IMG/VR virus record: IMGVR_UViG_3300045988_038566
DNA length: 47,547 nt
DNA from: a virus
Reading direction: 5' to 3' (one strand)
The notes beneath the pieces were generated by a model, which saw nothing but the letters and a program-made list of their open reading frames with translations, did no database searches and was not told the origin of the DNA. Shown here one piece after another: positions 3,549-47,547 of this stretch (position 1 is the stretch's first letter; the number at the start of each line of letters is the position of its first letter). Made by a program: the position numbers and the translations under genes.

Positions 3549-6500
3549 TTGGCAGGGTCACAAAAGGAATTTGAACTGCTTTTTAAGCTGAAAGCGTCGC
3601 TGGGTAGCAATTTTAACAGCACATTCAAAAGCGCAATTAACACCAATAACCAGTTACGGGACAGCTTAAAAAATGTCAATTCCCTGCAATCAAAGATTGA
3701 CGGCTACACAAAGCAGTCTGCCGCTATTGATAAGAACAAAGAACGGCTGGCGCAGCTTAACGCAGAGCATGACCGATTACAGCAGGAATTGCAGCAGACA
3801 GGCGAACCCACAGAAGCACTGCGGAAGAAGCTTGAAAAGAATGAAAACCAGATACAACAGACCACTGCCAAAATCGAAGAACAGGAAAAACAATTAAACA
3901 GTTATGCCGACGAACTGAAAGCAGCCGGAGTAAATACGGATAATCTGGAAGAAGCCAACGGAAGACTGCAAAAGTCTTATGAAAAGCTACAAACTTCACA
4001 GCAGACGTTGCAAAAATTGAATGACAAGCAACAGCAGGTAGAACAGAGCATTTCAAAGACAAAAGGACAACTACTGGGGACTATTGGCGCAATTAGTGCC
4101 GTAGCCGCCGCAGTGTATGCAGGACCCGTGCAGGCAGCACAGCAGTACGAAAAAGCAATAGCAAAGGTGGGAACCATTGCAGATACGCAGGAAGTCCCAC
4201 TGGGCACATTGTCACAACAGATAATGGAACTGTCAAACAAGACAGGAATTGCAGCCAACGCCATTGCTGATGATGTGTACAACGCTATATCTGCCGGACA
4301 GAAGACAGGTGACGCCGTAAACTTTGTTACAAACAGTACGAAGTTAGCAAAAGCCGGATTTGCGGAAAGTTCGCAAACGCTGGACGTATTAACAACCGTA
4401 TTGAACGCATACGGCATGAGTGCGGACAAAGTAAGCACGGTATCAGATATGCTGGTACAGACGCAGAACAAAGGTAAAGTGACAGTAGGAGAACTGGCAA
4501 GCAGTATGGGTAAAATCATACCAACTGCAAACGCCAGCAATGTTTCACTGGAACAGTTATGCGCCGGATATGCAATAATGACCAGCAAAGGTATTGCAGC
4601 CGCAGAAACGACAACATACATGAACAGTATGTTAAATGAGTTGTCAAAGTCTGGAAGTACGACAGACAAGCTATTGCGGCAGAAGATGGGCGGCAGCTTT
4701 GCAGAATTGATGGCAAGCGGCAAATCGCTTGGGGAAATTCTGGGAGGTATACAGGAAGAAGCCAGCAAGTCTGGTCTTGCCCTATCTGATATGTTCAGCA
4801 GTTCAGAAGCCGGAAAAGCGGCAATGTCGCTTCTGTCAAACGGAGTTGACGGCTTCAATTCAAGCGTACAAGACATGGTAAACAGCGTTGGGGCAACAGA
4901 CAGCGCATTTGCCAAAATGGAAGACACCACAGAAGCCAAAATGGAAAAGGCAAAGAACAGTATAGCAAACTTGGGTATTGTTCTTGGTCAAAACTTACTG
5001 CCGATTGTAGGAAATTTGGCAGACAAAGTGGCGGTGGTGGTCACTAAAGTTTCAGAATTTGCAGCAGCAAACCCAAAATTGGTGCAAACAGCCCTAAAGG
5101 TAGCGGCAGGGCTGGCGGCATTGAAAGTGGGAATGTTGACAACAAAGCTGGTTACATTATCAGCGCAAGACGGCATATTGTCACTGGCAAAAAAACTGCT
5201 GGGACTGCGTGCCGGATTTATTGAAAACGCAGCAACAAGCGTAAGTTTTGCGGAAAAGCTGAAAACAGCTGGAAGCGGTATATTGTCATACTTTGGCAAT
5301 GTAAAAGGCGCTATGGGCGGCGTAGGTTCTGCAATAGGTAATATATTCAGTGGCAACAGAGTTGTTGGAGCAGTAACAGGCTTTATGGGCGGCGTGAAGC
5401 AGTCCATTGTCAGCGGCTTTTTAGGAATTGCAGGAAAAGCAAGCGGAGCATTGACAGGAGCCGGAACAAAAATGCTGGGACTTATGCTGAAACCATTTTC
5501 GTTGATTGGCGGCAAGCTGGGTCCGATACTTGGAACGGTAGGCAGTGCGATTGCAAACAGCCCACTTGGAAAAGTAGGCGGCTTCATAACAAAGGGAATT
5601 ACCGGAGCATTTAGCAAGGCAACAACACTGATTGCACCGCTGGGAAATGCGGTAAAAACGGTGCTGGGTCCTATTGGAAACCTTGCAAAAACAGCACTGG
5701 GACCGCTTGGAGGTATTGCAGGAAAGATACTGCCAGTTGTGGGCGTTATCACAACAATTATTACAGTAATACAGCTTGTAAAGAACCATCTTGAAGAGAT
5801 AAGGGGATTTATACAGCGGACTTTTGGTGATGAAGCACTGGCAGTCTTTGACAAGATTGTTTCAATCATTACCAACATAGGCGACACCATAAAGAATGTG
5901 TTTTCTGATGGGAACATAGGTGCAGCCCGTGACAAGATACAAGAATTGTTCGGAGATAAAGGCGCAGCAGTCTTTGACACGTTTGTAAATGTGCTGGGAA
6001 CAGTAAAGAACGCAGTTTCAGAGGTTGTGGGCTTTATAACCACATACGTTGTGCCAGTTGCAGAACAGGTATTGCAGGTAATTGTCACACAGGTAATACC
6101 GGGGATTGTTAGTTTTATTCAAGCGGCAGCCCCAACCATTATGCAGATTATACAAAGCATTGCTGATTTTATCGGTGCAATTATTCCGGTGATAGGAAGT
6201 TTCATTGCTGGTCTTATGCCGATTATTTCAGAAATAATCACATTCATTTCAACTTATGTTTTGCCGATTATTTCAGAATTATTCAGCTTTATTTGTAGCA
6301 CGGTGCTTCCGGCAATTTCCGCAGCAATTCAAGCAATTTTGCCAGTGGTGACAAACGTATTGCAAACGCTTTTACCTGCGATACAAACAGCACTGACAAC
6401 AATCTGGAACATAGTTTCACCGATAATTCAAGGAATTTTAGCGGCAATACAATTTGTAATGCCAACAATCCAGTCTATCGTACAAAGCGGAGTTCAAGCA

Positions 6501-13283: not shown

Positions 13284-14336
13284 ATGTCTAATTTTGATGA
13301 TTTAGCAATGGCGGTTGCTTCTTTTGGGGGCAACAATGCAGTAAAGTTTGATGATTTGGGTATGCCGTCAATTATGGTGGGTATTCCAAAAATGAAGTAT
13401 TCCGACATTATCACCGGAGGAACACAGGAAACATTGCCGTGGTGGATTGTGGACGGAGTAGAAAAAGAAGTTATCTGGGTATCGAAGTATATTAACGTCG
13501 TGGTCAACGACCGTGCATACTCACTGCCAATGAAAGACCCTAAAGCATACATTGACTTTGACACAGCACTTGCAGTATGCCGCAGAAAGGGTGAGGGCTG
13601 GCACCTTAACCAGAACGGCGTATTTGCCGCAATCAACCTTTGGTGTATGAAAAACGGCTTCACGCCCCGTGGAAACACAAACTGGGACAGAAGCTATGAA
13701 AAGGGATATGAAAAGGGTATCAACACATACATTGACGGTTCACACGGCGGCGGCAGAACCGCAACTGGTTCTGGTCCGGTAACTTGGAACCATGACGGCA
13801 GCCCGGCTGGAATTGCCGACCTTTGCGGCAACTGCTGGGAGTGGGTATCTGGTATGCGCATTGTAGATGGTGAAATTCAGATTATCCCATACGGAAACGC
13901 CATGAAGTCTGACTGCAACATGGGTGCAAAAAGTACAGAGTGGAAAGCAATTAAGCCGGACGGCACACTTGTAGCACCGGGAACGGTTGGAACATTAAAG
14001 ATTGACAGAACCAGTGCGAGTGACGCAACACTGCGTATCAACACAAGTGTCACAACACAGACGACGGACAGCAACGACACAAGCGTACCATTCAAAGATA
14101 CAAAGGCAGTAAGCGGCGTAACCGTTCCGCAGATTTTGATTGCGTCCGGTTTATATCCAGACGCAGGACAGACAACGCCGGGCAGATTTTGGGCAAGAAA
14201 CAACGGCGAAAGACTGCCTATCCGGGGTTCGAGTTTCGGCAACACTTCCTATGGTGGTGCTGGTGCGCTGAGCTTGAACTTCCCTCGTTCTTACGTCATC
14301 AACAATGTGTCGTTCCGTTCCGCTTTTGTGGAATAA
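13284..14336 (+). CDS. DGR variable protein 1 (C-type-lectin / FGE-sulfatase-fold receptor-binding protein, tail-fibre locus)
   Basis: 350 aa. It has the core motifs RRKGEGWHL and DLCGNCWEWVSG. The C-terminal 37 codons are the VR matching the downstream TR. Confidence 0.9.
   Translation: MSNFDDLAMAVASFGGNNAVKFDDLGMPSIMVGIPKMKYSDIITGGTQETLPWWIVDGVEKEVIWVSKYINVVVNDRAYSLPMKDPKAYIDFDTALAVCRRKGEGWHLNQNGVFAAINLWCMKNGFTPRGNTNWDRSYEKGYEKGINTYIDGSHGGGRTATGSGPVTWNHDGSPAGIADLCGNCWEWVSGMRIVDGEIQIIPYGNAMKSDCNMGAKSTEWKAIKPDGTLVAPGTVGTLKIDRTSASDATLRINTSVTTQTTDSNDTSVPFKDTKAVSGVTVPQILIASGLYPDAGQTTPGRFWARNNGERLPIRGSSFGNTSYGGAGALSLNFPRSYVINNVSFRSAFVE
14215..14325 (+). repeat. DGR variable repeat VR1 (111 nt)
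   Basis: Identical to TR 14936-15046 except at 8 positions, all of which are adenines in TR. Confidence 0.92.
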
Positions 14337-14337
14337 C

Positions 14338-14353
14338 TGGAAACTGGGAACTG
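14338..14353 (+). promoter_or_regulatory. Candidate IMH-like recipient element downstream of VR1 (TGGAA-ACTGGGAACTG)
   Basis: Shared with the VR2 flank (27101-27117) and absent downstream of TR. Confidence 0.4.
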
Positions 14354-14362
14354 TTATACTGT

Positions 14363-14384
14363 GGGGCTTACGGCAGTAAGCCCC
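14363..14384 (+). other. GC-rich hairpin with 4-nt loop downstream of VR1 (DGR target-recognition type; could also terminate)
   Basis: GGGGCTTAC (14363-14371), loop GGCA, GTAAGCCCC (14376-14384). The 9-bp stem is perfect. Confidence 0.55.
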
Positions 14385-14419
14385 CCTATTTTGAAACTAA
14401 AGTAAAGGTGGTTTAAGAA

Positions 14420-14878
14420 ATGCCAGAAAATACAGCAGAACAACTGCCGCAACTGGATAACGTGCGGGACAATGCGACGCAAGAAGATTTCAAAATGAAA
14501 AATAAAGTATATGAAATGCTTTTGTATGCGTACCCAGCATTAGAACAATTTCCAAAGAGCGACAGAAAACTTGCGGACCATATACGGGAAGCAATACTGC
14601 AAGTGTTTGAATTAGTGATACACCTTGAAAACAAACACTACAAGAAAACGACGTTGGGAGAACTTGACGACCAGTTGGACGTCCTGCGGCACCTTGTAAG
14701 GCTTGCGGCAGACCAGCAGTTGCACCCAGACAAGAAACCATGCTTGCCAATACGCAAATATGAAATATTGTCAAGAAAGATAAATGAAATAGGGTGCATG
14801 ATTGGCGGGTATTATAAATCACTGAACGGCAGCACGGCTGGAAACGGCGGTGCTGCAAATAAAAGCAATGGTAAATAG
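14420..14878 (+). CDS. avd: DGR accessory variability determinant (Avd, four-helix-bundle protein)
   Basis: 152 aa. ...VYEMLLYAYPALEQFPKSDRKLADHIREAIL...LDVLRHLVRLAADQQL...YEILSRKINEIGCMIGGYYKS fits the Avd pattern. It lies between the target and TR. RBS AAGGTGG upstream; the alternative start is ATG 14495. Confidence 0.85.
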   Translation: MPENTAEQLPQLDNVRDNATQEDFKMKNKVYEMLLYAYPALEQFPKSDRKLADHIREAILQVFELVIHLENKHYKKTTLGELDDQLDVLRHLVRLAADQQLHPDKKPCLPIRKYEILSRKINEIGCMIGGYYKSLNGSTAGNGGAANKSNGK

Positions 14879-14898
14879 CAGGGTAACACCTGCTTTTT
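14878..14898 (+). terminator. Weak terminator-like hairpin between avd and TR
   Basis: GCAGG (14878-14882), loop GTAACA, CCTGC (14889-14893), then TTTTT (14894-14898). The stem is only 5 bp. Confidence 0.35.
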
Positions 14899-14935
14899 AT
14901 ATTATGGGAATAAGCCGTTAATAGAGGACTTGCCG

Positions 14936-15046
14936 TGCCTATCCGGGGTTCGAGTTTCAACAACACTTCCAATGGTGGTGCTGGTGCGCTGAACTTGAAC
15001 AACCCTCGTTCTAACGTCAACAACAATGTGTCGTTCCGTTCCGCTT
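14936..15046 (+). repeat. DGR template repeat (TR, 111 nt)
   Basis: It is the invariant donor copy matching VR1 and VR2. It has 23 adenines and, in the target frame, 10 AAY codons. It is non-coding in context and sits between avd and the RT. Confidence 0.92.
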
Positions 15047-15307
15047 CACCCCATTTCTGCCAGCAGTCGTGTTCACAAGTGGGCACGTCCAGTGCGTATG
15101 GGTTAAAGGGGTTTATTTCCATTCCAAAGGCTGCCAGCCGGGAGCCGTAGGAAAAAGATTGAATTGCCGTAAAGATAGTTAGTAAGCCACAGGCTGAAAG
15201 TCAGAGCCGGAAACACTGGCACTGAATGTATATATCACGTTTGGGCTGCGGAAGAACCGCAGTTTGATTTGTACGGCGAAATTTTAACAACAGGAGGGAA
15301 AAGGGAA
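15047..15307 (+). ncRNA. TR-to-RT spacer of the DGR RNA (putative structured priming region)
   Basis: 261 nt of non-coding sequence between TR and the RT start. It contains the hairpin CTGCGG/CCGCAG (15246-15262). The assignment is by analogy to the BPP-1 DGR RNA spacer. Confidence 0.4.
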
Positions 15308-16522
15308 TTGCACAAAATCAAAAACATTTTCCCTATAATTTATGACTTTGAAAATCTCTTCAATGCGTATAAAGCCGGGATAAAGTGCAAGAGGTACAGA
15401 CCAGATGTGATGGCGTACACGGATAAGCTGGAAGAAAACTTGATTGAGTTACAGAATGAATTTATCTGGCAGACCTACACCGTGGGGCGCTACAACATAT
15501 TTTATGTTTACGAACCGAAAAAGCGCATGATTATGTCATTGCAATTCAAAGACCGGGTGGCACAGCACGCTATATATAGCCAGCTGAACCCGTATTTTGA
15601 AAAGCAGTTCATACATGACAGCTACGCTTGCAGAGTAGGCAAGGGAACACACAAAGCAGTCAACCGCCTGCATAACTGGTTGAAGCAGACAGACCGAAAG
15701 CCGCAGCGTTTCTATTATTTGAAACTGGATATTGCAAAGTATTTTTACCGGATAGACCATGAAGTATTGATGGACATTTTGCGGAAAAAGATTGCTGATA
15801 AAGATTTGTTGCACGTCTTGTCAGTGATTATAAACTGCGAAGACACAAACTTTGGTCTGCCACTGGGCGCAGATATTGGCGACGTGGCGTTTGATGAATT
15901 GCTGGGAGAAGTTGGGCTGCCTATTGGCAATTTGACTTCACAAATGTTTGCAAATTTGTATTTGAATGAACTTGACCAGTTCTGCAAACACAAACTGCAC
16001 CTGCGTTATTACATACGTTACATGGACGACATTATAATTTTGCACCCAGATAAAAAGTATCTGGAAAAGATAAAGAACAAAATTGCGGACTTTCTGGGAA
16101 AAGAACTGCGGTTGCAGCTTAACAAGAAAACCTGCATAAGACCAACCAGCATGGGTATTGAGTTTGTAGGGTTCCGCATTTGGTCAACACACATAAAATT
16201 GCGCAAGAAGACGGCAAAGAAGCTGAAACGACGATTGAAATATATGTTTGCAGCATATCACGCCGGAGAGATTGACAAAGATACACTGGATAGGTCCGTT
16301 GCTTCATACCGGGGCATATTACAGCATTTCAACAGCTACGGTATGCGCCAGAGCTTAAACGAACTGTACTTGCAGGAAATGGGCAAGCCATATCCAGAAC
16401 CGGAGAAGAAGCCAGACAGCAAATGCGGTCTATTCTGCGGATATTACGGCAGCGCTGATGATTATATCAAGCAGCCAGAAGACAAGGAGGTGACGGACAG
16501 TGGAAGCAATGCAGACGCTTAA
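15308..16522 (+). CDS. DGR reverse transcriptase
   Basis: 404 aa from TTG 15308 (AGGAGGG at 15292-15298); the ORF is open from 15269. Motifs seen: EPKKRMIMSLQFKDRVAQHA, LDIAKYFYRIDH, the DGR-type PIGNLTSQMFANLYL (SQ signature), and the catalytic YIRYMDDIIIL. Confidence 0.92.
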   Translation: MHKIKNIFPIIYDFENLFNAYKAGIKCKRYRPDVMAYTDKLEENLIELQNEFIWQTYTVGRYNIFYVYEPKKRMIMSLQFKDRVAQHAIYSQLNPYFEKQFIHDSYACRVGKGTHKAVNRLHNWLKQTDRKPQRFYYLKLDIAKYFYRIDHEVLMDILRKKIADKDLLHVLSVIINCEDTNFGLPLGADIGDVAFDELLGEVGLPIGNLTSQMFANLYLNELDQFCKHKLHLRYYIRYMDDIIILHPDKKYLEKIKNKIADFLGKELRLQLNKKTCIRPTSMGIEFVGFRIWSTHIKLRKKTAKKLKRRLKYMFAAYHAGEIDKDTLDRSVASYRGILQHFNSYGMRQSLNELYLQEMGKPYPEPEKKPDSKCGLFCGYYGSADDYIKQPEDKEVTDSGSNADA

Positions 16523-16952
16523 CCCAGCGGACGTCTGGGACATGGTGCAAAAAGCTATTGTATGGCTTGCGGGGATTGGGATTGTTATTGACTTAACGCC
16601 GGGAATTAAAATACAGCCCGTTCGCTGGTTGATTAAACAGCTGGGAAATCTTATGAACCACGACTTGAAAGAGCAGCTGAACCAGCTTGAAAAGGACTTT
16701 ATAGAACACAAGGTTGATAGCTGGCGCACGGAGATACTATCATTCCAGAGCAGTTGCATAAACCATGAACGCCATACAAAAGAAGAGTTTGACCATGTTA
16801 TTGATACATTGGCGAAGTATGACAAGTATATTAAGGACCACAAGTTGACAAACGGACAAGTTGACGTTGCGCATGAGTACATAGTGGATATTTACAAAGA
16901 ATGTATGCGCACAAACGACTTTGCTTTGACAAAGCCGGAAGAAGAACCATAG
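16500..16952 (+). CDS. Lysis-cassette membrane protein (N-terminal TM helix plus coiled coil), function unknown
   Basis: GTG 16500 lies 9 nt after AAGGAGG and overlaps the RT 3' end by 23 nt. Hydrophobic segment AIVWLAGIGIVIDL. Confidence 0.5.
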   Translation: MEAMQTLNPADVWDMVQKAIVWLAGIGIVIDLTPGIKIQPVRWLIKQLGNLMNHDLKEQLNQLEKDFIEHKVDSWRTEILSFQSSCINHERHTKEEFDHVIDTLAKYDKYIKDHKLTNGQVDVAHEYIVDIYKECMRTNDFALTKPEEEP

Positions 16953-16970: not shown

Positions 16971-17354
16971 ATGAAAAGTTTAATATTTTTTATCATTGGA
17001 TTTGCACTGGCATTAGCAGTGCTTTTTTTATGGAATTTACAGTATTTCAGACAGCGCAGGAAGAAGAGAAAAGAAGAGTTGCAGGAACACCCGGAGCGAA
17101 AGACCAGCGCAACAAAAATCATTATCTTTTCAATTCTGGCGACTTACTACATAGCATTTGCCGTTGGCGTGTGGGTAGTGGTCACAAAGGATTTTTACCA
17201 GTTATCAGTCTTGCTGACGTTCGTTGGCGGGGTAACTGCTGCCGCAGTAGCGTTCTACTGCTGGAAAGCAAAGGCAGAAAACCTGCTGAAAATCAAAGCT
17301 GCATACCCGGAGTTGTCCGGCACGCTGTCTGACTTTTCAAGCATGACGCAGTAG
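16971..17354 (+). CDS. Holin (multi-TM)
   Basis: 127 aa with three or four hydrophobic helices and charged linkers. It lies immediately upstream of the endolysin. Confidence 0.7.
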   Translation: MKSLIFFIIGFALALAVLFLWNLQYFRQRRKKRKEELQEHPERKTSATKIIIFSILATYYIAFAVGVWVVVTKDFYQLSVLLTFVGGVTAAAVAFYCWKAKAENLLKIKAAYPELSGTLSDFSSMTQ

Positions 17355-18811: not shown

Positions 18812-19399
18812 ATGGATAATGTAATTTATGCAGCCGTATATTTTGCCGTAACACTGGGGGCGTTCTTGATTGGAAAGTACGTTTGCCCAAACATTCCAAA
18901 GACTGTAACAGACAAGCTGGGCGAACTGTCAGAGTGGGCAGCAAAGTTTGTGGAATGGGCAAAAGAGTTCAAAAAGGATAAGACCGGGGAAGAGAAGATG
19001 GCAGCAGTTGTGGAGCAGTTGAAGAAGATTGCTGATGAAGCCGGGCTGAATGTCACAGAAGACCAGCTGAAAGCCATTGCGCAGGCGGCATACAATGCCA
19101 TGAAAGCCGGAGAGAAAGAAAGCAATACCGCAGAACCGCTGGAAGCACTCACAGCCACACCAGCTGCAACGGTAGTGATTAACACAACGGCACCAGTGAC
19201 AACAACAGAGAAAGTGGCTATTGCCACAGACAATGCGCCGGAGGGTGCCACGGAAACAAACGCAGACGGCACAGTGAACCTTTATGACGCAGCCGGGAAC
19301 ATTACCGGGAGCGTGACAAAGGAAGAAGCAGAGAAGATGGCAGCAGAAGTCACGAAGATTGTTGACGAAGAGGGAAACACGCTGGCAGACCTTAAATAA
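18812..19399 (+). CDS. LL-H-type holin-like membrane protein
   Basis: 195 aa with a single N-terminal TM (AAVYFAVTLGAFLIGKYV) followed by a helical, charged tail, a pattern recalled for the holin LL-H family. Confidence 0.5.
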   Translation: MDNVIYAAVYFAVTLGAFLIGKYVCPNIPKTVTDKLGELSEWAAKFVEWAKEFKKDKTGEEKMAAVVEQLKKIADEAGLNVTEDQLKAIAQAAYNAMKAGEKESNTAEPLEALTATPAATVVINTTAPVTTTEKVAIATDNAPEGATETNADGTVNLYDAAGNITGSVTKEEAEKMAAEVTKIVDEEGNTLADLK

Positions 19400-20402: not shown

Positions 20403-20443
20403 ATCGTTTGACCTCCGTGTGTTTGATTTCTTTAACTGTCTTT

Positions 20444-20472
20444 ATTATATACTTACGGAAGTATAAAAACAA
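20444..20472 (-). promoter_or_regulatory. Leftward promoter cassette (TTGTTT-N17-TATAAT) with the operator in the spacer
   Basis: The minus strand reads TTGTTT TTATACTTCCGTAAGTA TATAAT AAAGACAGTTAAAG, the same cassette as at 21137, 22025 and 33805. Confidence 0.7.
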
Positions 20473-20530
20473 TCGGCAAAATACACAAATATACTTCCGT
20501 AAGATTGTATAAAATGTATACTTCCGTAAG
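20448..20530. promoter_or_regulatory. Operator cluster: three copies of the TATACTTCCGTAAG core (20448-20465 inverted, 20490-20503, 20517-20530)
   Basis: Direct reading. The cluster lies in the divergent region between the leftward operon and the RHH gene. A rightward extended -10 (TGATATACT, 20542-20550) follows. Confidence 0.7.
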
Positions 20531-20577
20531 AAAACAAAGTGTGATATACTGATTAAAAACCACAGGAGGTGCAGGAA

Positions 20578-20820: not shown

Positions 20821-21128
20821 TTATAGAGCCAGTGAAGAGGATAGCAGAAAATTATCTGGAAACCAGAAACAAGGTGATTGAAAATTGCTGGTGCATGATA
20901 GTTGGGAACGACACGCCAAAGCAGGAAGACGGCTGGCTTGAAGTAATGAACGGCAGGCAAACAGAAAACGGGATTGCTAATATATACAACTTTATGTATA
21001 AAGGGAAAAGAGCGCTGACGCTGGAAGAAGTACAAGGGTGCGGGGCAAGCAGGTATTTTATCAGCAGCGGGGAATATACACTGGAAGACTACATGAGAGC
21101 GGTGCAAAATAATTCTGAAAAACTGTGA
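20805..21128 (+). CDS. Hypothetical protein (107 aa)
   Basis: GTG 20805 lies 7 nt after GGAGG (20793-20797) and overlaps the RHH gene's end. Confidence 0.5.
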   Translation: MAERMIIEPVKRIAENYLETRNKVIENCWCMIVGNDTPKQEDGWLEVMNGRQTENGIANIYNFMYKGKRALTLEEVQGCGASRYFISSGEYTLEDYMRAVQNNSEKL

Positions 21129-21136
21129 AAAAACTA

Positions 21137-21165
21137 TTGACTTTATACTTCCGTAAGTATATAAT
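21137..21165 (+). promoter_or_regulatory. Promoter cassette TTGACT-N17-TATAAT with the operator TATACTTCCGTAAGTATA (21144-21161)
   Basis: -35 at 21137-21142, 17-nt spacer, -10 at 21160-21165, followed by AAAGATAGTTAAAG. Confidence 0.75.
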
Positions 21166-21223
21166 AAAGATAGTTAAAGAAGCAACAATACTTTGACGAA
21201 TACGGCAAGGGAAAGGAGAAAAC

Positions 21224-21489: not shown

Positions 21490-22017
21490 ATGGAAACTGA
21501 AATGGAAAGCAGAATTGCAGACCCGTTCAGCTGGGACGGACACGAAGCAGAAACACTGCTTGTTTGCGAAAGTGGAAGCGGAAGAGCAAAAGAACTGGTG
21601 GCAGTTGTGACAGTAAAGACAGAGGGAAGACCAGAAGCATTTTACAGAGTGAGAGAAGCAGGAGAAAAAGACGTTGACTTTGAAAGCTGGCTTGAAGCGG
21701 TAGACTATTACAACTGCATTGGAGTAGAGAGCCACCCGGCAACACCGGACACCGGAATTGCAAAAACGGAGTTGCAGGACGAAGACTGGAAAACAGCAAT
21801 AGCACAGAAAAAGCCAACAATCCCGGCAGGCGCAGTGGTAAAGATAACTGGAACACTGCAAAATATGTATGGGGACTTTGTGAAAGTGGAGTACAACGGC
21901 GTAAAGTACACGGTTGAGCCACGCAAACTGGATATGCCAAAGACGCTGGAAGAACAGAAACAGGCAATCAGAAAAGCGACACTGGCAGCAGGCGCAAAGA
22001 TAATTGAAAATAATTAA
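21490..22017 (+). CDS. Hypothetical protein (175 aa)
   Basis: ATG 21490 lies 8 nt after GGAGG. The leader TTCAATACGGAGG is shared with the 22120 gene. Confidence 0.55.
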   Translation: METEMESRIADPFSWDGHEAETLLVCESGSGRAKELVAVVTVKTEGRPEAFYRVREAGEKDVDFESWLEAVDYYNCIGVESHPATPDTGIAKTELQDEDWKTAIAQKKPTIPAGAVVKITGTLQNMYGDFVKVEYNGVKYTVEPRKLDMPKTLEEQKQAIRKATLAAGAKIIENN

Positions 22018-22024
22018 AAACCTA

Positions 22025-22053
22025 TTGACAATATACTTACGGAAGTATATAAT
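22025..22053 (+). promoter_or_regulatory. Promoter cassette TTGACA-N17-TATAAT with an inverted operator (22032-22049)
   Basis: -35 at 22025-22030, -10 at 22048-22053, followed by AAGGACAGTTAAAG. Confidence 0.75.
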
Positions 22054-22119
22054 AAGGACAGTTAAAGCAATAGTGCTTAACACAAATAGTCAATATGGTT
22101 CAATACGGAGGGAATAGCA

Positions 22120-22425: not shown

Positions 22426-22477
22426 GTACTAACTTAACACAGCCCACGGGTAGTGTCACATTAGTACAACACTACCC
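22426..22477. other. Candidate attP region (interleaved inverted repeats at the integrase 3' end)
   Basis: GTACTAA (22426-22432) pairs with TTAGTAC (22461-22467). GGGTAGTGT (22448-22456) pairs with ACACTACCC (22469-22477). The call rests on position only. Confidence 0.25.
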
Positions 22478-23869
22478 AAAAACAACACCCGTGATATTCT
22501 GGTCATTATCAATTCTAATTTCTTTAATGGCAGAACGCCAAAGCGTGCGTTTTTCTTCACGGGTCAAATTCTCATAAATTGTTTTGAAATCATTATCAAG
22601 GAGCCTGCGGACGGCTGCAAAGTCTGGCGGCGGTTCAATGCTGGGTTCCGGTATCTGTTTAAGTGCAGCAGTATATATTTGATAGTCCCTTTTGTAGTCC
22701 TCAATGTCTATTAAGTCATTCACATATAATTCTTTTAACTTGGTCAGCTTCCGTTTCAGTGCTGCTTTATCAGTGCGGGCAACGGACGCTTTCTTTTTGG
22801 CTGCGGCAACTTCCCATTCCAGCTGGCAGCGTTCCAGTTCCTCTGCCAGATGTTCAAACAGCCACTTTTCCACGACGTCTTCACGGGCTGAATGATTATG
22901 AGAGCAGCGCCCACGCTGGAAATGCTGGTTGCAGCGGTAATAATAATAATCACTTGACTTGTACCCGACCAGTTTATGCCCACATTCAGCGCAAGTCAGA
23001 ATGGAAGTGAAAATATATACCTTGCCAGACGGAACAGAACGTGCGTTGCGTTCCAGAAGCGCTTGCACACGGTCAAACTGCTGCTTGCTGATGATTGCCG
23101 GGCAGAAATGGTCATTGAACCTGCCGCCCCGGTCATACACCCCAGTATACAGCTTTTCTTTCAGCATACGCCGGAAAGTGGCGTCACACCAGTTCACGCC
23201 GTAGGTTTCCCGGATATAGCGGACAGTAGCACGCTGGGAAATCGAAGTTTCAAAGTAGTTGAAAGCGTCTTGCACAATGGCTGCGTCTTCTGGCACAACT
23301 TCCAGCCGCTTTTCCTCATTAACACGGAAGCCAAAGGGAGCAGAGCCGGAAACAACGGTGCCGTGGGCAATCTTACTGTCAAATACAACGTCTATTCGTT
23401 CCCCGTCAATGTCCGCTTCATTCTGGGCAATGGACAGCTTCACGTTAATATACAGACGCCCGTTTGCGGTTGTGGTGTCATATTCTTCATCAGTGGTTTT
23501 CCAGTCGCAGTTGTGCGCTTCCAGAACTTCCATGATTTTATAATAATCTGCCACGGAACGAAACCAGCGGTCAAGGCGGCAGAAAAGCAGAATATTCACT
23601 TCATCACGCTTCACACTGTCCATCATGCGTTGAAAGTCGGTTCTTTTATGAATGTTCTTTCTGGCGGTCTTGGCAGCGTCAATGTAAATTCCAACAATGA
23701 CCCAGCCACGTTCCCTTGCGTATGCTTCCAGTCGTTCTTGCTGGGCTTCCAGTGACAGACCTTTTATTTTCTGTTCTTCCCCGGAAACCCTTATATATAA
23801 AGCAACCCGGACAAGTTCCGGGCTTAAATCAATCTTTTTCACTATTGTATCACCTGCATTTCCTTTCAT
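22472..23869 (-). CDS. Large serine recombinase (phage integrase)
   Basis: 465 aa from ATG 23869 (ORF open to 23962). Resolvase-type N-domain (VALYIRVSGEEQ...), recombinase domain, zinc ribbon (CAECGHKL...YYYRCN) and a C-terminal coiled coil. Confidence 0.88.
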   Translation of the reverse strand: MKGNAGDTIVKKIDLSPELVRVALYIRVSGEEQKIKGLSLEAQQERLEAYARERGWVIVGIYIDAAKTARKNIHKRTDFQRMMDSVKRDEVNILLFCRLDRWFRSVADYYKIMEVLEAHNCDWKTTDEEYDTTTANGRLYINVKLSIAQNEADIDGERIDVVFDSKIAHGTVVSGSAPFGFRVNEEKRLEVVPEDAAIVQDAFNYFETSISQRATVRYIRETYGVNWCDATFRRMLKEKLYTGVYDRGGRFNDHFCPAIISKQQFDRVQALLERNARSVPSGKVYIFTSILTCAECGHKLVGYKSSDYYYYRCNQHFQRGRCSHNHSAREDVVEKWLFEHLAEELERCQLEWEVAAAKKKASVARTDKAALKRKLTKLKELYVNDLIDIEDYKRDYQIYTAALKQIPEPSIEPPPDFAAVRRLLDNDFKTIYENLTREEKRTLWRSAIKEIRIDNDQNITGVVFG

Positions 23870-23982
23870 TTCCCGCCTGCTGGTGATATAATCAAAATTG
23901 CAGACGGTATTGTTGTATCTGGTATGACATATCTTTGCACGCCCCGGAAGTGTTCCCAGCACGACCGGGGCATTTTGTTTTA

Positions 23983-25556: not shown

Positions 25557-25655
25557 ATAGCAGTAACCGCTAAAAAAGTCAATATTAAAAACGGAAAAAG
25601 GGTTGACAAATAGCAGTAACCGCTATAATATATAGTTAAACAAGCAGTAACCGCT
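25557..25655. promoter_or_regulatory. Three operators AGCAGTAACCGCT (pseudo-palindrome AGCnGTnACnGCT) at 25559-25571, 25612-25624 and 25643-25655
   Basis: Direct reading. (A)ATAGCAGTAACCGCT occurs twice and CAAGCAGTAACCGCT once. The middle site overlaps the rightward promoter. Confidence 0.7.
25603..25631 (+). promoter_or_regulatory. Rightward early promoter (TTGACA ... TATAAT/TAATAT) overlapped by an operator
   Basis: TTGACA at 25603-25608. TATAAT at 25624-25629 gives a 15-nt spacer. TAATAT at 25626-25631 gives a 17-nt spacer. Confidence 0.6.
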
Positions 25656-26151: not shown

Positions 26152-27159
26152 ATGAAAGAATTTGTGAAGAAAAAAGCAGTCATTGTCATGGACAGTGCAG
26201 GACTGCCAAACTACATGACCATGTTTTATATGGAGCCGGGGACCTATGAGCCGGAGGACGTGCCGGAACTGTTCAAAATCAGAAACAAGATTGTTCCTGC
26301 GGTTCTGGTGTCGCAGTTCACCAACACCATGATTAAGGGCGTCCCGGCGTCCTTACCTTACCAGCAGCCAAAACACACTATCAGTTATGATGAAGCGGCG
26401 GCAGCCTGCGGAAGAAAAGGCAAGGGCTGGCACCTTATGACAAATACAGAGTTTGTCTATCTACTGCATGAAGCAGAGGAACTGGGGCACACAATCGGCG
26501 GTAATACAAACTACGGCAGCAACTCAAAGAATGAGCAGGAAAGCGGCGTGAGATACGACAGCGCCGGACGCACGCTGACCGGGTGCGACCCCCTCACATG
26601 GTCCCATGACGGAACAGCAGACGGCGTGTTTGGTCTTTGCGGTAATTTCTGGGAATGGGTCACGGGCTTGCGTCTGCACAAAGGCGTTGTGGAATACACG
26701 CCGAACAACGACGCAGCAGTTGAGGGCTACACAGAGAAGCCAGACTGGACCGTTGCAGAGGTGAACGGCAGACCGTTGAAGCTGTACGGCAACAGTGCTG
26801 GTGATGTGGTAATGTCCGTTGCGGAAGAAATCGAAGAAAACTGGGAGGGCTGCCACATGGCAGACTTGCAGCTGGAAGAACTGGACGAAGTGCCGGAAAT
26901 TGCGTACAAGCTGGGAATTGTACCGCATGACTGGAAGCATGAAACAGCTGGACTTTGGGCAGACAGCGAACTTGAAGAAAGCGTGCCTATCCGGGGTTCG
27001 GGTTTCTACTACACTTCCAATGGTGGTGCTGGTGCGCTGATCTTGGACTACCCTCGTTCTCACGTCCTCAGCAATGTGTCGTTCCGTTCCGCTTTGTTCT
27101 TGGAAGACTGGGAACTGGTAACTGAATTACTGAAAGCGGGTGCGACAGCGCACGCATAA
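26152..27159 (+). CDS. DGR variable protein 2 (remote paralogue of target 1, C-type-lectin/FGE fold)
   Basis: 335 aa. Motifs GRKGKGWHL, GLCGNFWEWVTG and VPIRGSGFYYTSNGGAGAL... It is collinear with target 1. The VR lies 22 codons before the stop. Confidence 0.9.
   Translation: MKEFVKKKAVIVMDSAGLPNYMTMFYMEPGTYEPEDVPELFKIRNKIVPAVLVSQFTNTMIKGVPASLPYQQPKHTISYDEAAAACGRKGKGWHLMTNTEFVYLLHEAEELGHTIGGNTNYGSNSKNEQESGVRYDSAGRTLTGCDPLTWSHDGTADGVFGLCGNFWEWVTGLRLHKGVVEYTPNNDAAVEGYTEKPDWTVAEVNGRPLKLYGNSAGDVVMSVAEEIEENWEGCHMADLQLEELDEVPEIAYKLGIVPHDWKHETAGLWADSELEESVPIRGSGFYYTSNGGAGALILDYPRSHVLSNVSFRSALFLEDWELVTELLKAGATAHA
26984..27094 (+). repeat. DGR variable repeat VR2 (111 nt)
   Basis: Identical to TR except at 10 positions, all TR adenines. 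The homology extends 2 nt further 5' (from 26982). Confidence 0.92.
27101..27117 (+). promoter_or_regulatory. Candidate IMH-like element downstream of VR2 (TGGAAGACTGGGAACTG)
   Basis: Shares TGGAA and an exact 11-mer ACTGGGAACTG with the VR1 flank. Not present after TR. Confidence 0.4.
27140..27153 (+). other. Short hairpin with 4-nt loop downstream of VR2
   Basis: GTGCG, loop ACAG, CGCAC. The stem is only 5 bp, weaker than the VR1 hairpin. Confidence 0.3.
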
Positions 27160-30131: not shown

Positions 30132-30950
30132 ATGGCAAGAACAAAAATACTGGTGCCGCAAGAAAAGCAGTGCGGGTATACTTCCGTTATTGTTTCATAC
30201 AGCACGGGGATTGACAGCACGGGCGCTATTTACTGGGCAACACAGAACTTTGCGCCGGAAAAAATATTCCTGCTGTACTGCGACACTGGCGCAGAATACA
30301 GCGTGAATGAAGCGTTGTTTTTCAAGACTGCAAAGGTTCTGGGATTGAAACCAATATTGCTGAAAGCACCGAAAGACTTTTTATATCTGCTTTTGAATGA
30401 GCGGTTGAAGTTCCCGGACAGCAAGAACCGCTGGTGTACGGCGTATCTGAAAACGGCGGTGACAGACCACTGGATAAGAACGCACCGGGACATACTGGGT
30501 GAAAAGTGTTTGTTCATATCTGGGGAACGCCGGGACGAAAGCAGAGGGCGTGCAAAGCTGCCAGAATGTGAGTATCACAGCACGACATTGAAAACAGAGC
30601 GCAAGGGCAAGTTTGAATGTCACTGGCTGCGCCCAGTGCTGGACTACGAAAAAGGCAAGATGTTTGAATTTGGAAAGCGTCTGGGACTGGACCCGCACCC
30701 GTGCTATGAATACATTGACCGTTGCAGCTGCATGATGTGCATATTTGCGAAAAATGAACAGGTCATGGAGAACATGAAGCGACACCCGGAAGCAATGCGG
30801 AAATGGGTAGACGCAGAAGCAAAGCTGGGGTTCACATGGAAGCAGAAAACAAGCCTGCAAGAATTGTGGGACCAGTGCTTTGATATTGACGACGTGACCG
30901 AAACGGACACACCAGAACAGGCAGGAGGTGACGCCTGGTGCCAGCAGTAA
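30132..30950 (+). CDS. PAPS-reductase-family (PP-loop ATPase, DndC/IbrA-like) protein
   Basis: 272 aa. PP-loop-like VSYSTGIDSTG, plus ...FISGERRDES... and a C-terminal Cys cluster (CYEYIDRCSCMMC). Confidence 0.7.
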   Translation: MARTKILVPQEKQCGYTSVIVSYSTGIDSTGAIYWATQNFAPEKIFLLYCDTGAEYSVNEALFFKTAKVLGLKPILLKAPKDFLYLLLNERLKFPDSKNRWCTAYLKTAVTDHWIRTHRDILGEKCLFISGERRDESRGRAKLPECEYHSTTLKTERKGKFECHWLRPVLDYEKGKMFEFGKRLGLDPHPCYEYIDRCSCMMCIFAKNEQVMENMKRHPEAMRKWVDAEAKLGFTWKQKTSLQELWDQCFDIDDVTETDTPEQAGGDAWCQQ

Positions 30951-33457: not shown

Positions 33458-33737
33458 AGCGGTGTGCCCGTTAGAGATTGGGGACACGGTAGCAATCGGA
33501 GCGGGAAAGACCGCAGCAGGAGTGAGAACGGCATATTATCTGCCAGCGGGCATGGAAGTAGTTGTGGCGGGTACGGTATCAATACACACGGTCACGGACA
33601 TTTCAACAACGCATTATCTGAAAAGCGGCAAAACAGTATTCAGATATGAATTGAACGGGTCCGGCAGATATGAAGTATTAAACGTGAAAGTCCCGGTAAG
33701 AGAAACGGCAGACGAACTGAACCGCCGTGGCAGATAA
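33438..33737 (+). CDS. Hypothetical protein (99 aa)
   Basis: ATG 33438 follows AGGAGGGAAAAGAGA. The ORF is open from 33417. Confidence 0.5.
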   Translation: METAVFKAVCPLEIGDTVAIGAGKTAAGVRTAYYLPAGMEVVVAGTVSIHTVTDISTTHYLKSGKTVFRYELNGSGRYEVLNVKVPVRETADELNRRGR

Positions 33738-33742
33738 AAATA

Positions 33743-33833
33743 AATACTTACGGAAGTATACAAAATGCACAAATATACTTCCGTAAGATTGTGTAAAATG
33801 TCGATTGCTTTTATACTTCCGTAAGTATATAAT
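33743..33833. promoter_or_regulatory. Second operator cluster plus promoter cassette (operators 33743-33760 inverted, 33774-33787, 33812-33829; TTGCTT-N17-TATAAT 33805-33833)
   Basis: Same architecture as 20448-20530. About 35 nt (CACAAATATACTTCCGTAAGATTGTNTAAAATGT) are near-identical to 20485-20518. Confidence 0.7.
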
Positions 33834-33884
33834 AAAGACAGTCAAAGGAACAACAACACAACATAGAAAACGGAGGTATAAGCA

Positions 33885-34166: not shown

Positions 34167-34239
34167 GCACGGGTGGCGCAATGGATAGCACAGCAGCCCC
34201 CGAAGCTGCCGGGTGCGGGTTCAAGTCCCGTCCCGTGCA
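34167..34239 (+). tRNA. tRNA, anticodon CCG (Arg) by manual folding; non-canonical C at position 33
   Basis: 73 nt. Acceptor GCACGGG/CCCGTGC plus discriminator A. D-arm GCGC-AATGGATA-GCAC (one C-A mismatch). Anticodon stem GCAGC/GCTGC with loop CCCCGAA (anticodon at 34200-34202). T-arm GCGGG-TTCAAGT-CCCGT. No encoded CCA. Confidence 0.75.
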
Positions 34240-34289
34240 TTACTGGGAAAAGAAACTATAAACATACCAGATACAAGGAGGAATACCCC

Positions 34290-35051
34290 ATGAAAACATT
34301 ATCAATCATTAACTTAAAAGGTGGAGTGGCAAAGACCATTTCCAGCGTTAATATGGCACACATTCTGGCAGCAGTACACGGCTGCAAAGTCCTGTTAATC
34401 GACAACGACAAGCAGGGGAACGCCAGCAAGATTTTGAACCGCCACAGTTACGACCATAAGGGAACCGCAGAGGTTATGACCCAGCGTGGCATTGACCCGG
34501 CAGCAGTTATCCAGCACACCGATTATGACGGCTTGGACATTATCACAGCAAACATGAACCTGCTGACAGCCAATTTGGAAGTCATGCTGGACCAGTCCAG
34601 ACCGCAACAGACACGCTTCAAAAAGTTTCTGGACGGATTGCAGCAGGAATATGACTACTGCATTATTGACAACGCCCCAGACATTAACATTTCGACCATA
34701 AATGCGCTGGTAGCTTCGCAAGACGTCATGGTGCCTATAACCATTGATGATTTTGCAATAGACGGTCTGGCAGAACTGAAAGAACAGATTGACAACACCC
34801 GTGAGGACCTAAACCCGCAGTTACGTTTCTGTGGCTGCTTTGTCACACAGTACGACAGAACAAACGAAGCAGACACGCAGGGAGAAGAGTTCTTGAAGAC
34901 GCTTGAATATCCGGTGTTTGATACGCATATCAGAAAGACACCGAAAATGAAACCCAGCACATTTGAAAGATTGCCAATCATTTTATATTCCCCACACTGC
35001 GGCGCAAGTGCCGACTATAAAGCGTTAGTGGAAGAATGGTTGAGAATGTGA
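34290..35051 (+). CDS. parA: ParA/Soj-type Walker ATPase
   Basis: 253 aa from ATG 34290. Deviant Walker A motif NLKGGVAKTISS, and IDNDKQGN and IIDNAPD motifs. The longer track ORF start at 34173 would run through the tRNA. Confidence 0.85.
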   Translation: MKTLSIINLKGGVAKTISSVNMAHILAAVHGCKVLLIDNDKQGNASKILNRHSYDHKGTAEVMTQRGIDPAAVIQHTDYDGLDIITANMNLLTANLEVMLDQSRPQQTRFKKFLDGLQQEYDYCIIDNAPDINISTINALVASQDVMVPITIDDFAIDGLAELKEQIDNTREDLNPQLRFCGCFVTQYDRTNEADTQGEEFLKTLEYPVFDTHIRKTPKMKPSTFERLPIILYSPHCGASADYKALVEEWLRM

Positions 35052-35064
35052 CCAATTCGGACAC
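35045..35064. repeat. 20-nt exact repeat AATGTGACCAATTCGGACAC, copy 1 (parS-like imperfect palindrome)
   Basis: Identical to 39626-39645. It lies between parA (overlapping its stop) and the ParB-like gene. The core is GTGnCCnAnTnGGnCAC. Confidence 0.85.
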
Positions 35065-35081
35065 GTTAGGAGGGAAAGACA

Positions 35082-36428
35082 ATGGCAGGAGCAGCAAAGA
35101 AATTCAACTTGACAGAGTTATTAAACCAGCGGTCAAAGGAAGCTGGGGAGCAGCAGAAAACAGAACAGCAGCAGGCGGCAGCAGGCACAGAGGTTGTCAC
35201 GTCCGAAGAGGGCGTGAGCAGCACTGCCGATATTTACGACCTTATACCGTCAAAGGGCAATTTTTACAGCGTGGAAGACGTGCAAGACTTAAAACAGTCT
35301 ATTGAACTTCTGGGAGTGTTACAACCACTTCTGGTGACTGATGAAGAGGAAGACGGCAAGCGCCGTATCATTGCAGGGCACAGAAGACGGCTGGCGGTCA
35401 TGCAGCTGGTGGACGAGGGAAAAGAGCGTTTCAGACGGGTTCCAATCTTAATCAAGCCGAAGAAAAACGCAATTCTGGACAGACTGGCACTGATTATGGC
35501 AAACCGTTTCCGTGAGAAGACAGACTGGGAACGCATGACAGAAGCGCTGGAAACAGAAAAGCTGGTACTGGAATTAAAAGAAAGCATGAACATTCCGGGC
35601 AGAACCCGTGATTTACTGGCAGAGATTATAGAAACGTCCCCGGCGCAGGTAGGAAGATACAAGGCAATCTATAACAATATCATTCCAGAACTGATGGCAG
35701 AATTTAAGGCAAACAGAATTGTTGTATCTGTCATTTATGAAGCGTCCGGGCTGCCGGAAGATTACCAGAAGCAGGCGGCAGAGGTATTCCGGGAAAATGA
35801 AGTGCTGACATTATCAGACATTAAGCAGATAAAGAAGAACTGGGAAGCGTCGCAGCAGATACCGGGACAGATGGACGAAGCCACAGAGGGAGCAGGAGAA
35901 GCCACAGAGGGCACAGAGGACGCAACCGGGCAGCAGTCAGAATACGTTGACCCACAGCCGGAGCAGATAACGTCACTTTGTTACAGCTGCACACACTATG
36001 AGGACTGCCACGACAAGACAGCAACCGTGACCAGCTGCAATGCTTATGAGAACCGCAGAGAAGCCCAGAAGACGGACGAAGAGAGATACAACGAAGAGCA
36101 GGCAGCTATTGACCGGGAAACACAAAAGAAACTGCGTGAAATGCAGCAGGAAGAGAAAATGCAGCACTTGCCGTCTGATGATAGAAAAGAAAAGACAATC
36201 AGAGTATCACCGGAGAAAATGAAAGCCGTTGCGGTTGACCGCACAAGACCATACATGATTTTGAAAAATGATGATTACAGAGAGGGCGACACAGTAAAGC
36301 TGATTGAGTTTGCAGATGGCAGAGCAACCGGAAACACGGCAGACATGAAAATTATCTGCATGGACGACGACACGACCAGCAGCGCACTTGAAGAGGGCTA
36401 TTGTGTAATAGCGTTGCAGGAGGTGTAG
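35082..36428 (+). CDS. ParB/Srx N-domain protein fused to a C-terminal DUF3850/ASCH-like PUA domain
   Basis: 448 aa. ParB box LGVLQPLLVT...RIIAGHRRRLA. The C-terminus ...YMILKNDDYREGDTVKLIEFADGRATGNTADMKIICMDD...GYCVIAL resembles DUF3850. Confidence 0.7.
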   Translation: MAGAAKKFNLTELLNQRSKEAGEQQKTEQQQAAAGTEVVTSEEGVSSTADIYDLIPSKGNFYSVEDVQDLKQSIELLGVLQPLLVTDEEEDGKRRIIAGHRRRLAVMQLVDEGKERFRRVPILIKPKKNAILDRLALIMANRFREKTDWERMTEALETEKLVLELKESMNIPGRTRDLLAEIIETSPAQVGRYKAIYNNIIPELMAEFKANRIVVSVIYEASGLPEDYQKQAAEVFRENEVLTLSDIKQIKKNWEASQQIPGQMDEATEGAGEATEGTEDATGQQSEYVDPQPEQITSLCYSCTHYEDCHDKTATVTSCNAYENRREAQKTDEERYNEEQAAIDRETQKKLREMQQEEKMQHLPSDDRKEKTIRVSPEKMKAVAVDRTRPYMILKNDDYREGDTVKLIEFADGRATGNTADMKIICMDDDTTSSALEEGYCVIALQEV

Positions 36429-47439: not shown

Positions 47440-47547
47440 ATGACACCAGTTTTTTTGTTGGAAGAATTGCAGAAATTCATTAGTTCCAAAACGTCTGACA
47501 TTATTTTGCCAGTGCGAACCAGAACGGGAAGCAACGAAGAAAAAGAA
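47440..47547 (+). CDS. 5' end of the junction-spanning gene (continues at base 100 of the window; same gene as 1-489)
   Basis: ATG 47440 lies 9 nt after GGAGGG. From 47449 the sequence duplicates bases 1-99. Confidence 0.6.
   Translation, partial: MTPVFLLEELQKFISSKTSDIILPVRTRTGSNEEKE
47449..47547. repeat. Terminal overlap, copy 2 (exact duplicate of 1-99)
   Basis: Direct comparison. Confidence 0.95.

Follow-up and report, generated by a model that had tools for sequence, protein, structure and literature searches.

The diversity-generating retroelement (DGR) of Bordetella phage BPP-1 has the order mtd-avd-TR-brt: it carries one target, the three-domain trimeric protein Mtd, together with the accessory protein Avd, a template repeat (TR) and the reverse transcriptase (RT) bRT. 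In a Thermus aquaticus prophage, a DGR has been described with a single target, TaqVP, a monomeric single-domain C-type-lectin (CLec) protein without assigned function (PMC6328139). DGRs are abundant in gut phages (PMC8144416), and phage DGRs in which one target is adjacent and a second is not, including a prophage case, have been documented as well (Wu et al. 2018, PMC5758913). Here, we describe a DGR in the IMG/VR virus record IMGVR_UViG_3300045988_038566, a sequence of 47,547 nucleotides that was analyzed over its entire length and is referred to below as the window; features lie on the plus strand unless indicated otherwise. We conclude with high confidence that it carries a complete two-target DGR of functional type, originating from an actively diversifying lineage. 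A preceding sequence-only reading had proposed a DGR at 13284-16522, based on adenine-only divergence, Avd, a DGR-type RT, a target with a CLec/formylglycine-generating enzyme (FGE) fold and gene order. Each of these lines of evidence was borne out, and the interpretation proved incomplete rather than wrong: the proposed target is a DGR target with a variable repeat (VR), but it is not the only one, as a second target gene lies outside that interval.

The element resembles that of BPP-1 in its target - avd - TR - RT order, in the adenine-specific divergence of its repeats, in the presence of Avd, in an RT homologous to bRT (E 1e-50; IGxLTSQ and YMDD), in a CLec target with a C-terminal VR, in a GC-rich hairpin with a GRNA loop that follows the VR and not the TR, and in a structured spacer RNA after the TR. 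Differences concern the number of targets (two here, one in BPP-1) and their architecture, as both targets are single-domain TaqVP-like proteins. Moreover, the hairpin is 4 bp from the VR in BPP-1 and 37-41 nt from it here, with an array of CTG units filling the gap. TR and VR agree completely over their final 20 nt here, without an internal difference between the initiation of mutagenic homing sequence (IMH) and its TR counterpart (IMH*). The host of the present phage is Gram-positive. With the Thermus aquaticus DGR the element shares its prophage location and an identical cassette order (PMC6328139), target 1 being a full-length homolog of TaqVP and target 2 a more distant one; the host belongs to another phylum and one target has been described there.

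Among annotated phages, Clostridium phage Saumur (ON453901.1), which resides as a prophage in Enterocloster clostridioformis YL32, comes closest. It has the same genome size and module order, and its cassette is ~73% identical over 90% of the length, including a TR, an adjacent VR and a remote VR beside the replication initiator; Avd and RT are annotated. Saumur is, however, a separate species-level phage in which both target genes are annotated 'hypothetical protein', and a search of the paper naming it returned no DGR terms. Compared with the two-target DGRs of Wu et al. (2018), there is no difference in kind; what is documented here is the early/replication position of the non-adjacent target and the adenine specificity of its mismatches (171 of 176, see below). 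The locus is a two-target DGR of a well-known type, with an annotation that is fuller than that of its nearest GenBank relative.

Composition of the cassette and its two targets

The TR (14936-15046) spans 111 nt, is non-coding and is located between avd and the RT gene. It contains 23 adenines and, read in the target frame, 10 AAY codons (8 AAC and 2 AAT), a composition for which a recount agrees with the sequence-only reading. An ungapped alignment with the repeat at the 3' end of target gene 1 (VR1, 14215-14325) yields 8 mismatches, at offsets 24, 25, 36, 58, 66, 67, 78 and 85. All 8 correspond to TR adenines, as had been claimed, which at random has a probability of 1.1e-6 given 23 adenines among 111 positions. 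VR1 ends 11 nt before the stop codon, at the extreme C-terminus of the target as previously reported. A repeat search of the whole window additionally revealed a third copy (VR2, 26984-27094), ~12 kb away from VR1 in the open reading frame (ORF) 26152-27159. Its 10 mismatches to the TR likewise all fall on TR adenines (P = 2.2e-8). The homology between TR and VR2 reaches 2 nt further 5', as far as 26982, and 21 codons separate the end of VR2 from the stop codon, so that VR2 is not at the extreme C-terminus. In all three copies the final 20 nt are free of adenine and identical, with complete divergence beyond. Because these 3' ends are identical, donor and recipients are distinguishable only by the sequence downstream, a distinction already anticipated by Wu et al.

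The number of variants was previously put at 15^10 = 5.8e11. While this arithmetic is correct, the figure is a lower bound only, since all 23 adenines vary in relatives, including those of the ATC, AGT and ACT codons. When all 23 are counted, ~3.7e13 protein variants result per target.

The avd gene (14420-14878) encodes 152 aa and lies between VR1 and TR. Its assignment, formerly based on a helical pattern, is upheld by both Pfam (PF22296 bAvd, 8e-22, 78.2 bits, cut-off 40) and NCBIfam (NF033474 DivGenRetAVD, 7e-27, 93.8 bits, cut-off 80) above their curated cut-offs. The RT gene (15308-16522; RVT_1, 5e-23) encodes 404 aa from a TTG codon. This TTG at 15308 is the likely start, judging from the AGGAGG that precedes it and from relatives that align from there; the mechanical ORF begins at 15269, and the 261-nt gap between TR and RT given in the sequence-only reading thus holds for the TTG start but not for the mechanical one. 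Both RT motifs noted before were located, IGNLTSQ at 15923-15943 and YMDD at 16019-16030, in line with the [I/L]GxxxSQ and YxDD motifs of DGR-clade RTs. The best solved structure is 8ub7 (328 aa; E 1.3e-50, 176 bits), which a cryo-EM preprint describes as the RT of the Bordetella phage DGR; residues I181, G182 and Q187 of the alignment fit the bRT numbering of the preprint, tying 8ub7 to bRT. Group II intron RTs (GsI-IIC; E 9e-19, 71 bits) and a retron-type RT (2e-15) match far less well, and every NCBIfam RT family scores well short of its cut-off. By score as well as by motif, the RT is distinct from both groups. Related RTs occur in prophages of Lachnospiraceae and other Bacillota.

Target gene 1 (13284-14336, 350 aa; phrog_2889, 6e-123) and target gene 2 (26152-27159, 335 aa; phrog_2889, 2e-69) belong to one and the same family without assigned function. 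Their products are paralogous over the full length (36% identity, E 3e-51) and have invariant N-terminal residues in common. By sequence search, target 1 matches TaqVP (5vf4) with an E value of 9e-65 and 40% identity. Its AlphaFold2 (AF2) model (pLDDT 83, pTM 0.86) superposes on TaqVP with a template modeling (TM) score of 0.90 and matches Mtd, TvpA and FGE-type enzymes too, in agreement with the CLec fold predicted earlier from the core motifs GWHL and GNCWEWV, both of which are present. For the AF2 model of target 2 (pTM 0.82), TaqVP is the sole match (E 6e-18, TM 0.70, 26% identity), and model confidence is low only within the hypervariable stretch. Hence, in both targets the VR lies in a fold that matches a known DGR variable protein. 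Following VR2, target 2 continues into a helical C-terminal extension of 21 residues that is missing in target 1. The FGE-sulfatase domain PF03781 was detected in 23 of 37 family members, this window's own variant not being among them. As the function of TaqVP is itself unassigned, the match provides a fold and not a role.

Adenine-directed variation across related phages

Diversification was evaluated in relatives, many of which are present in IMG/VR with RTs 93-99% identical to that of the window, using contigs that carry both TR and VR. In 30 distinct TR/VR1 pairs, TR adenines account for 366 of 375 mismatches. The same holds for VR2 (171/176) in 15 contigs carrying both TR and VR2, including lineages with highly diverged TRs. 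The VR1 copies of relatives are polymorphic at all 23 adenine positions while the adenines of the TR are essentially invariant, so that the heterogeneity expected for a DGR, limited to A-templated positions of the VR, is indeed seen across related genomes. Wherever the TRs of relatives differ at a non-adenine position, the cognate VR1 has the base of its own TR (113/113), and VR2 tracks its own TR in lineages whose TRs diverge strongly. The repeats thus change in concert with the TR as the conserved copy, consistent with a directional flow from TR to VR. Together, the adenine specificity of the mismatches and the cognate polymorphisms demonstrate that this lineage actively diversifies both targets from one template.

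One pair of contigs from the same IMG dataset shows no difference over 400 nt upstream and 18 differences over the 111 nt of VR1. As these upstream comparisons were ungapped, indels inflate some pairs (~50/400), and only the pair with 0/400 was used as evidence. At the protein level, the 90%-identity clusters P0122 and P0002 hold 16,255 (target 1) and 8,624 (target 2) distinct sequences, respectively. Such oversized clusters are the database footprint of hypervariation and could reveal DGR targets without a search for a TR. In one contig (L093, IMGVR_UViG_7000000069_000179; 4514-4718), the VR2 copy ends in N and abuts another, incomplete VR-like copy; VR heterogeneity in the sample most likely made the assembly collapse at this point.

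Conserved elements around the template and the variable repeats

The spacer between TR and RT (15047-15307) is structured. In an alignment of 19 lineages, its consensus fold comprises 38 pairs, 21 of which are preserved by compensatory changes. Of the alignment cells, 96% are paired, compared with 33-47% when the partners were slid by 1-3 columns, and none of 500 shuffles reached the observed covariation. The strongest helix is a tetraloop stem-loop, CGTGTTCA-CAAG-TGGGCACG (15068-15087), which has an 8-bp stem with a bulge, starts 22 nt after the TR and covaries in all 8 pairs. Additionally, the TR is bracketed by a long-range duplex, in which the upstream strand ATGGGAATAAGCC (14904-14916) pairs with 15110-15122. 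This duplex measures 11-14 bp, with the upstream strand 20-33 nt before the TR, and recurs, with compensatory changes, in all of the diverse lineages compared (18/18). Its calculated free energy is −18.7 kcal/mol for cognate strands, −13.1 kcal/mol for non-cognate strands and −9.6 kcal/mol for shuffled ones. These values were obtained with a 16-nt anchored segment and controls, as RNAduplex on long flanks gave only over-extended, meaningless duplexes.

The Bordetella element is reported to contain an 'Avd-binding stem-loop' immediately after its TR and a 'cPRT Stop duplex' across the TR, both of which were also predicted for 207 further DGRs (bioRxiv 10.1101/2023.10.23.563531). The stem-loop at 15068-15087 fits the former and the duplex corresponds to the latter, and by analogy binding of Avd and RT would be expected here too. 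Rfam, applied to the whole window at the gathering threshold, returned no RNA family in the cassette. A helix proposed by RNAalifold between the 3' end of the TR (15041-15045) and AAAGGGG at 15107-15111, considered as a template:primer duplex, was found to be unsupported. Its four pairs are all invariant, and its partner shares two bases with the well-supported duplex strand 15110-15122.

On the recipient side, a hairpin 3' of the VR is required for efficient homing of phage DGRs (Guo et al.; PMC3240598), the published rule being a GC-rich stem of 7-10 bp and a 4-nt 5'-GRNA loop, located 4-34 bp past the VR (PMC3240598). Hairpin 1, GGGGCTTAC-GGCA-GTAAGCCCC (14363-14384), has a 9-bp GC-rich stem and a GRNA loop and is followed by a short T run. 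Hairpin 2, GCGGGTGC-GACA-GCGCACGC (27136-27155), also has a GRNA loop, on a stem with one mismatch and one G-T pair. Perfect hairpins, defined as a stem of at least 6 bp with a 4-nt loop, were scored at 114 distinct VR junctions and 48 TR junctions of relatives. They occur 33-42 nt after the VR at 59 of the 114 VR junctions, with a GRNA loop in all 59 and 18 different stems, and at none of the 48 TR junctions. In more distant relatives, the VR2 hairpins have perfect stems with GACA, GAGA or GGTA loops. As in known DGRs, the repeats therefore combine an A-free, GC-rich 3' end, the IMH region, with a GRNA-loop inverted repeat that follows the VRs and not the TR.

The interval from each VR to its hairpin is occupied by four CTG units, arrayed at spacings of 7, 7 and 8 nt. 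Array 1, AACTGGAAACTGGGAACTGTTATACTG (14335-14361), is non-coding and follows the stop codon, and array 2, GACTGGGAACTGGTAACTGAATTACTG (27106-27132), is located within the coding sequence. These two are the only arrays of at least four CTGs at 7/8-nt spacing on both strands of the whole window. In close relatives, (7,7,8) or (7,8) spacing is present at 102 of the 114 VR junctions and at none of the TR junctions. The pattern extends to genomic DGRs with RTs 42-90% identical, for which an array of at least four units was found at 46 of 64 distinct VR junctions and in 0 of 64 TR flanks, against a background of 0.25% among randomly chosen 50-nt windows of these loci. The VR1-type stop codon lies before, inside or after the array, depending on the lineage. 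As a period of 7-8 nt is not a coding periodicity and the stop codon shifts relative to the array, it is the nucleic acid that is under constraint.

The way in which the cDNA locates the VR and takes its place is still termed 'incompletely understood' (PMC12875486), and the CTG array is not mentioned in the target-recognition paper, in the large survey or in the open-access papers covered by a full-text literature search. Since IMH and IMH* are identical in this clade, discrimination must lie downstream. From its position and its specificity for VRs, the array may have a role in recipient-site recognition. We tentatively put forward that it could be an undescribed cis-acting part of DGR target recognition, marking recipient VRs versus the donor TR across a large clade of DGRs from Bacillota phages, a proposal that we hold with less than even confidence. 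It might, for example, be bound by the RT-Avd particle, Avd being a pentamer, or by a host factor. Pairing of the array with the near-invariant spacer motif CAGUUAGUAA was also considered and dropped, as inspection by eye gave no support: array units are changed (AACCG, CACCG) while the spacer motif stays, and in lineages L057 and L044 the spacer motif changes while the AACTG units stay.

A mechanism modeled on BPP-1 can be outlined from these elements. An RNA of approximately 14903-15307 would be made, running from the 3' flank of avd through the TR and the structured spacer. The tetraloop stem-loop and the TR-bracketing duplex would recruit and position the RT-Avd complex, and the RT would copy the TR into cDNA, misincorporating opposite the 23 template adenines. 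This cDNA would then replace the homologous 111-nt segment at VR1 or VR2, both recipients presumably being distinguished from the donor TR by the four-unit CTG array and the GC-rich GRNA hairpin that follow the shared A-free 20-nt 3' end. The predicted outcome is up to ~4e13 variants of the ligand-binding face in each of two paralogous single-domain CLec proteins. Here cDNA synthesis, its priming, the roles of Avd and of the hairpin, and receptor binding are all carried over from the Bordetella phage.

Alternative explanations, genome context and significance

Several observations weigh against a functional two-target DGR in this genome. About 2-3% of the TR/VR mismatches in relatives are at non-adenine positions (9/375 and 5/176). 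The stem of the VR2 hairpin is imperfect, and at 33-42 nt from the VR the hairpins lie slightly past the published range. Neither target protein of this window has a match in Pfam or NCBIfam, and the fold was accordingly shown via structure prediction, PDB sequence search and a scan of relatives. The virion location of target 1 is drawn from the position of its gene only, and activity is established at the level of the lineage, not for this individual genome. The last point leaves room for a recently silenced fossil, in which the VR differences date from an active ancestor and the present copy no longer retrohomes. One consensus sequence cannot demonstrate activity, only 8 of the 23 VR1 adenines are changed, at the low end of the 8-17 found in relatives, and the defect in the VR2 stem would fit such a loss. 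We nevertheless regard silencing as very improbable. The RT and Avd ORFs are intact and retain their catalytic motifs, no inactivating lesion is visible in either RT or TR, every RNA and DNA cis element is present, this exact TR recurs in 7 other contigs, all with different VRs, and near-identical contigs differ almost solely in their VRs. The chance that the repeats are ordinary paralogous sequence kept alike by recombination, next to an unrelated retron or group II enzyme, appears negligible. The target genes are indeed paralogs, and the top NCBIfam match of the RT is a group II intron model. That match is, however, far below threshold (group_II_RT_mat, 125.6 against a cut-off of 300), as is that of the retron family (St85, 53 against 235), and the RT scores 176 bits to bRT versus 71 bits to group II RTs. 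A whole-window Rfam search at the gathering threshold returned only a tRNA-Arg (34167-34239), with neither an intron ribozyme nor an msr-msd or other retron RNA adjoining the RT. Moreover, recombination does not account for mismatches that are confined to the adenines of one copy (P ~1e-6 to 1e-234), nor for a middle copy that is non-coding and situated between avd and RT. A two-target DGR of an actively diversifying lineage remains our preferred explanation.

A perfect 99-nt terminal direct repeat (1-99 = 47449-47547) identifies the window as a complete genome of ~47.4 kb, either circularly assembled or terminally redundant. Its functions include tail sheath, tape measure, baseplate, large terminase, portal and major head proteins, endolysin, holin, a serine integrase, a CI-like repressor, ParA/ParB-like proteins and a replication initiator. 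Together with the terminal repeat, this set characterizes a complete temperate contractile-tailed phage genome, from a phage of gut Lachnospiraceae. In line with the earlier placement between tail and lysis modules, baseplate genes precede the cassette, and endolysin and holin genes follow it. Target 1 is the last gene of the baseplate/tail module, preceded by baseplate genes and three small ORFs of unknown function and followed by avd, TR and RT in the order originally described and then by the lysis genes. Given this position, target 1 most likely forms the tail tip that binds the receptor.

Target 2 is encoded in the early/replication region, where the order is integrase (minus strand), an unknown ORF (minus strand), repressor (minus strand), a promoter-like site, two small ORFs, target 2 and Rep. 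In a consensus scan, which is weak evidence, the only plus-strand promoter-like site near target 2 was at 25603-25631, and a consensus-only terminator scan, equally weak, found no plus-strand terminator after target 2. We see an even chance that target 2 is a second virion receptor-binding protein, so that the phage would display two independently diversified binders. The targets are full-length paralogs with shared invariant N-terminal residues, adopt the same single-domain fold over their whole length and are diversified to a similar extent, and viral DGR targets are mostly tail proteins in surveys (PMC8144416). On the other hand, the gene sits on the early strand between the repressor and early promoter and the replication initiator, its neighbours are non-structural, the scan found no promoter-like site of its own, and its placement adjacent to Rep is retained in Saumur. 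This conserved position, the C-terminal extension that target 1 lacks, and the mention of non-structural viral targets in PMC8144416 would fit a non-virion protein, early or lysogenic, for instance a binder of a variable host or competitor molecule, which would give the DGR two functions. We consider such a role possible but rather unlikely, as neither the sequence nor the AF2 model of target 2 contains a signal peptide, membrane segment or extra domain, and gene position is weak evidence of timing or location in mosaic phage genomes.

Elsewhere in the genome, a ~45-70 nt element around the palindrome TATACTTCCGTAAGTATA occurs at 20426-20537, 21124-21191, 22012-22079 and 33734-33860. Its direct and inverted copies are intergenic, extend from after the lysis genes to before the ParA-like gene and look like repeated operator or promoter modules. 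The tRNA-Arg (anticodon CCG) overlaps the mechanical start of the ParA-like ORF (34173-35051), the true start of which is probably further downstream. A large serine integrase (22472-23962, minus strand) is combined with the ParA/ParB-like pair (34173-36428, plus strand) in this genome as in Saumur, raising the question of integrated prophage versus plasmid maintenance. The replication module further contains a phosphoadenosine-phosphosulfate-reductase-like gene (phrog_424, 30132-30950), the Saumur homologue of which is directly upstream of the second DGR target. Between RT and endolysin, two small ORFs with hydrophobic segments (16500-16952 and 16971-17354) belong to phrog families without assigned function, the first overlapping the RT stop by 23 nt; they may be part either of the lysis module or of the DGR cassette, and the annotated holin is further on, at 18812-19399.

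As a DGR the element is ordinary: no source of DGRs is known to be richer than gut phages, a two-target layout has been documented in a prophage, and RT and Avd are already annotated in a related isolate phage. Its value is that of a well-resolved example: a complete circular genome, with both targets diversified across dozens of natural relatives and the known protein, RNA and DNA elements all mapped to the base. With Saumur, a cultivable relative is available through the OMM12 strain E. clostridioformis YL32, which makes the role of the replication-adjacent target experimentally approachable. The CTG array, kept far beyond this phage, provides a concrete and mutable candidate for target recognition.

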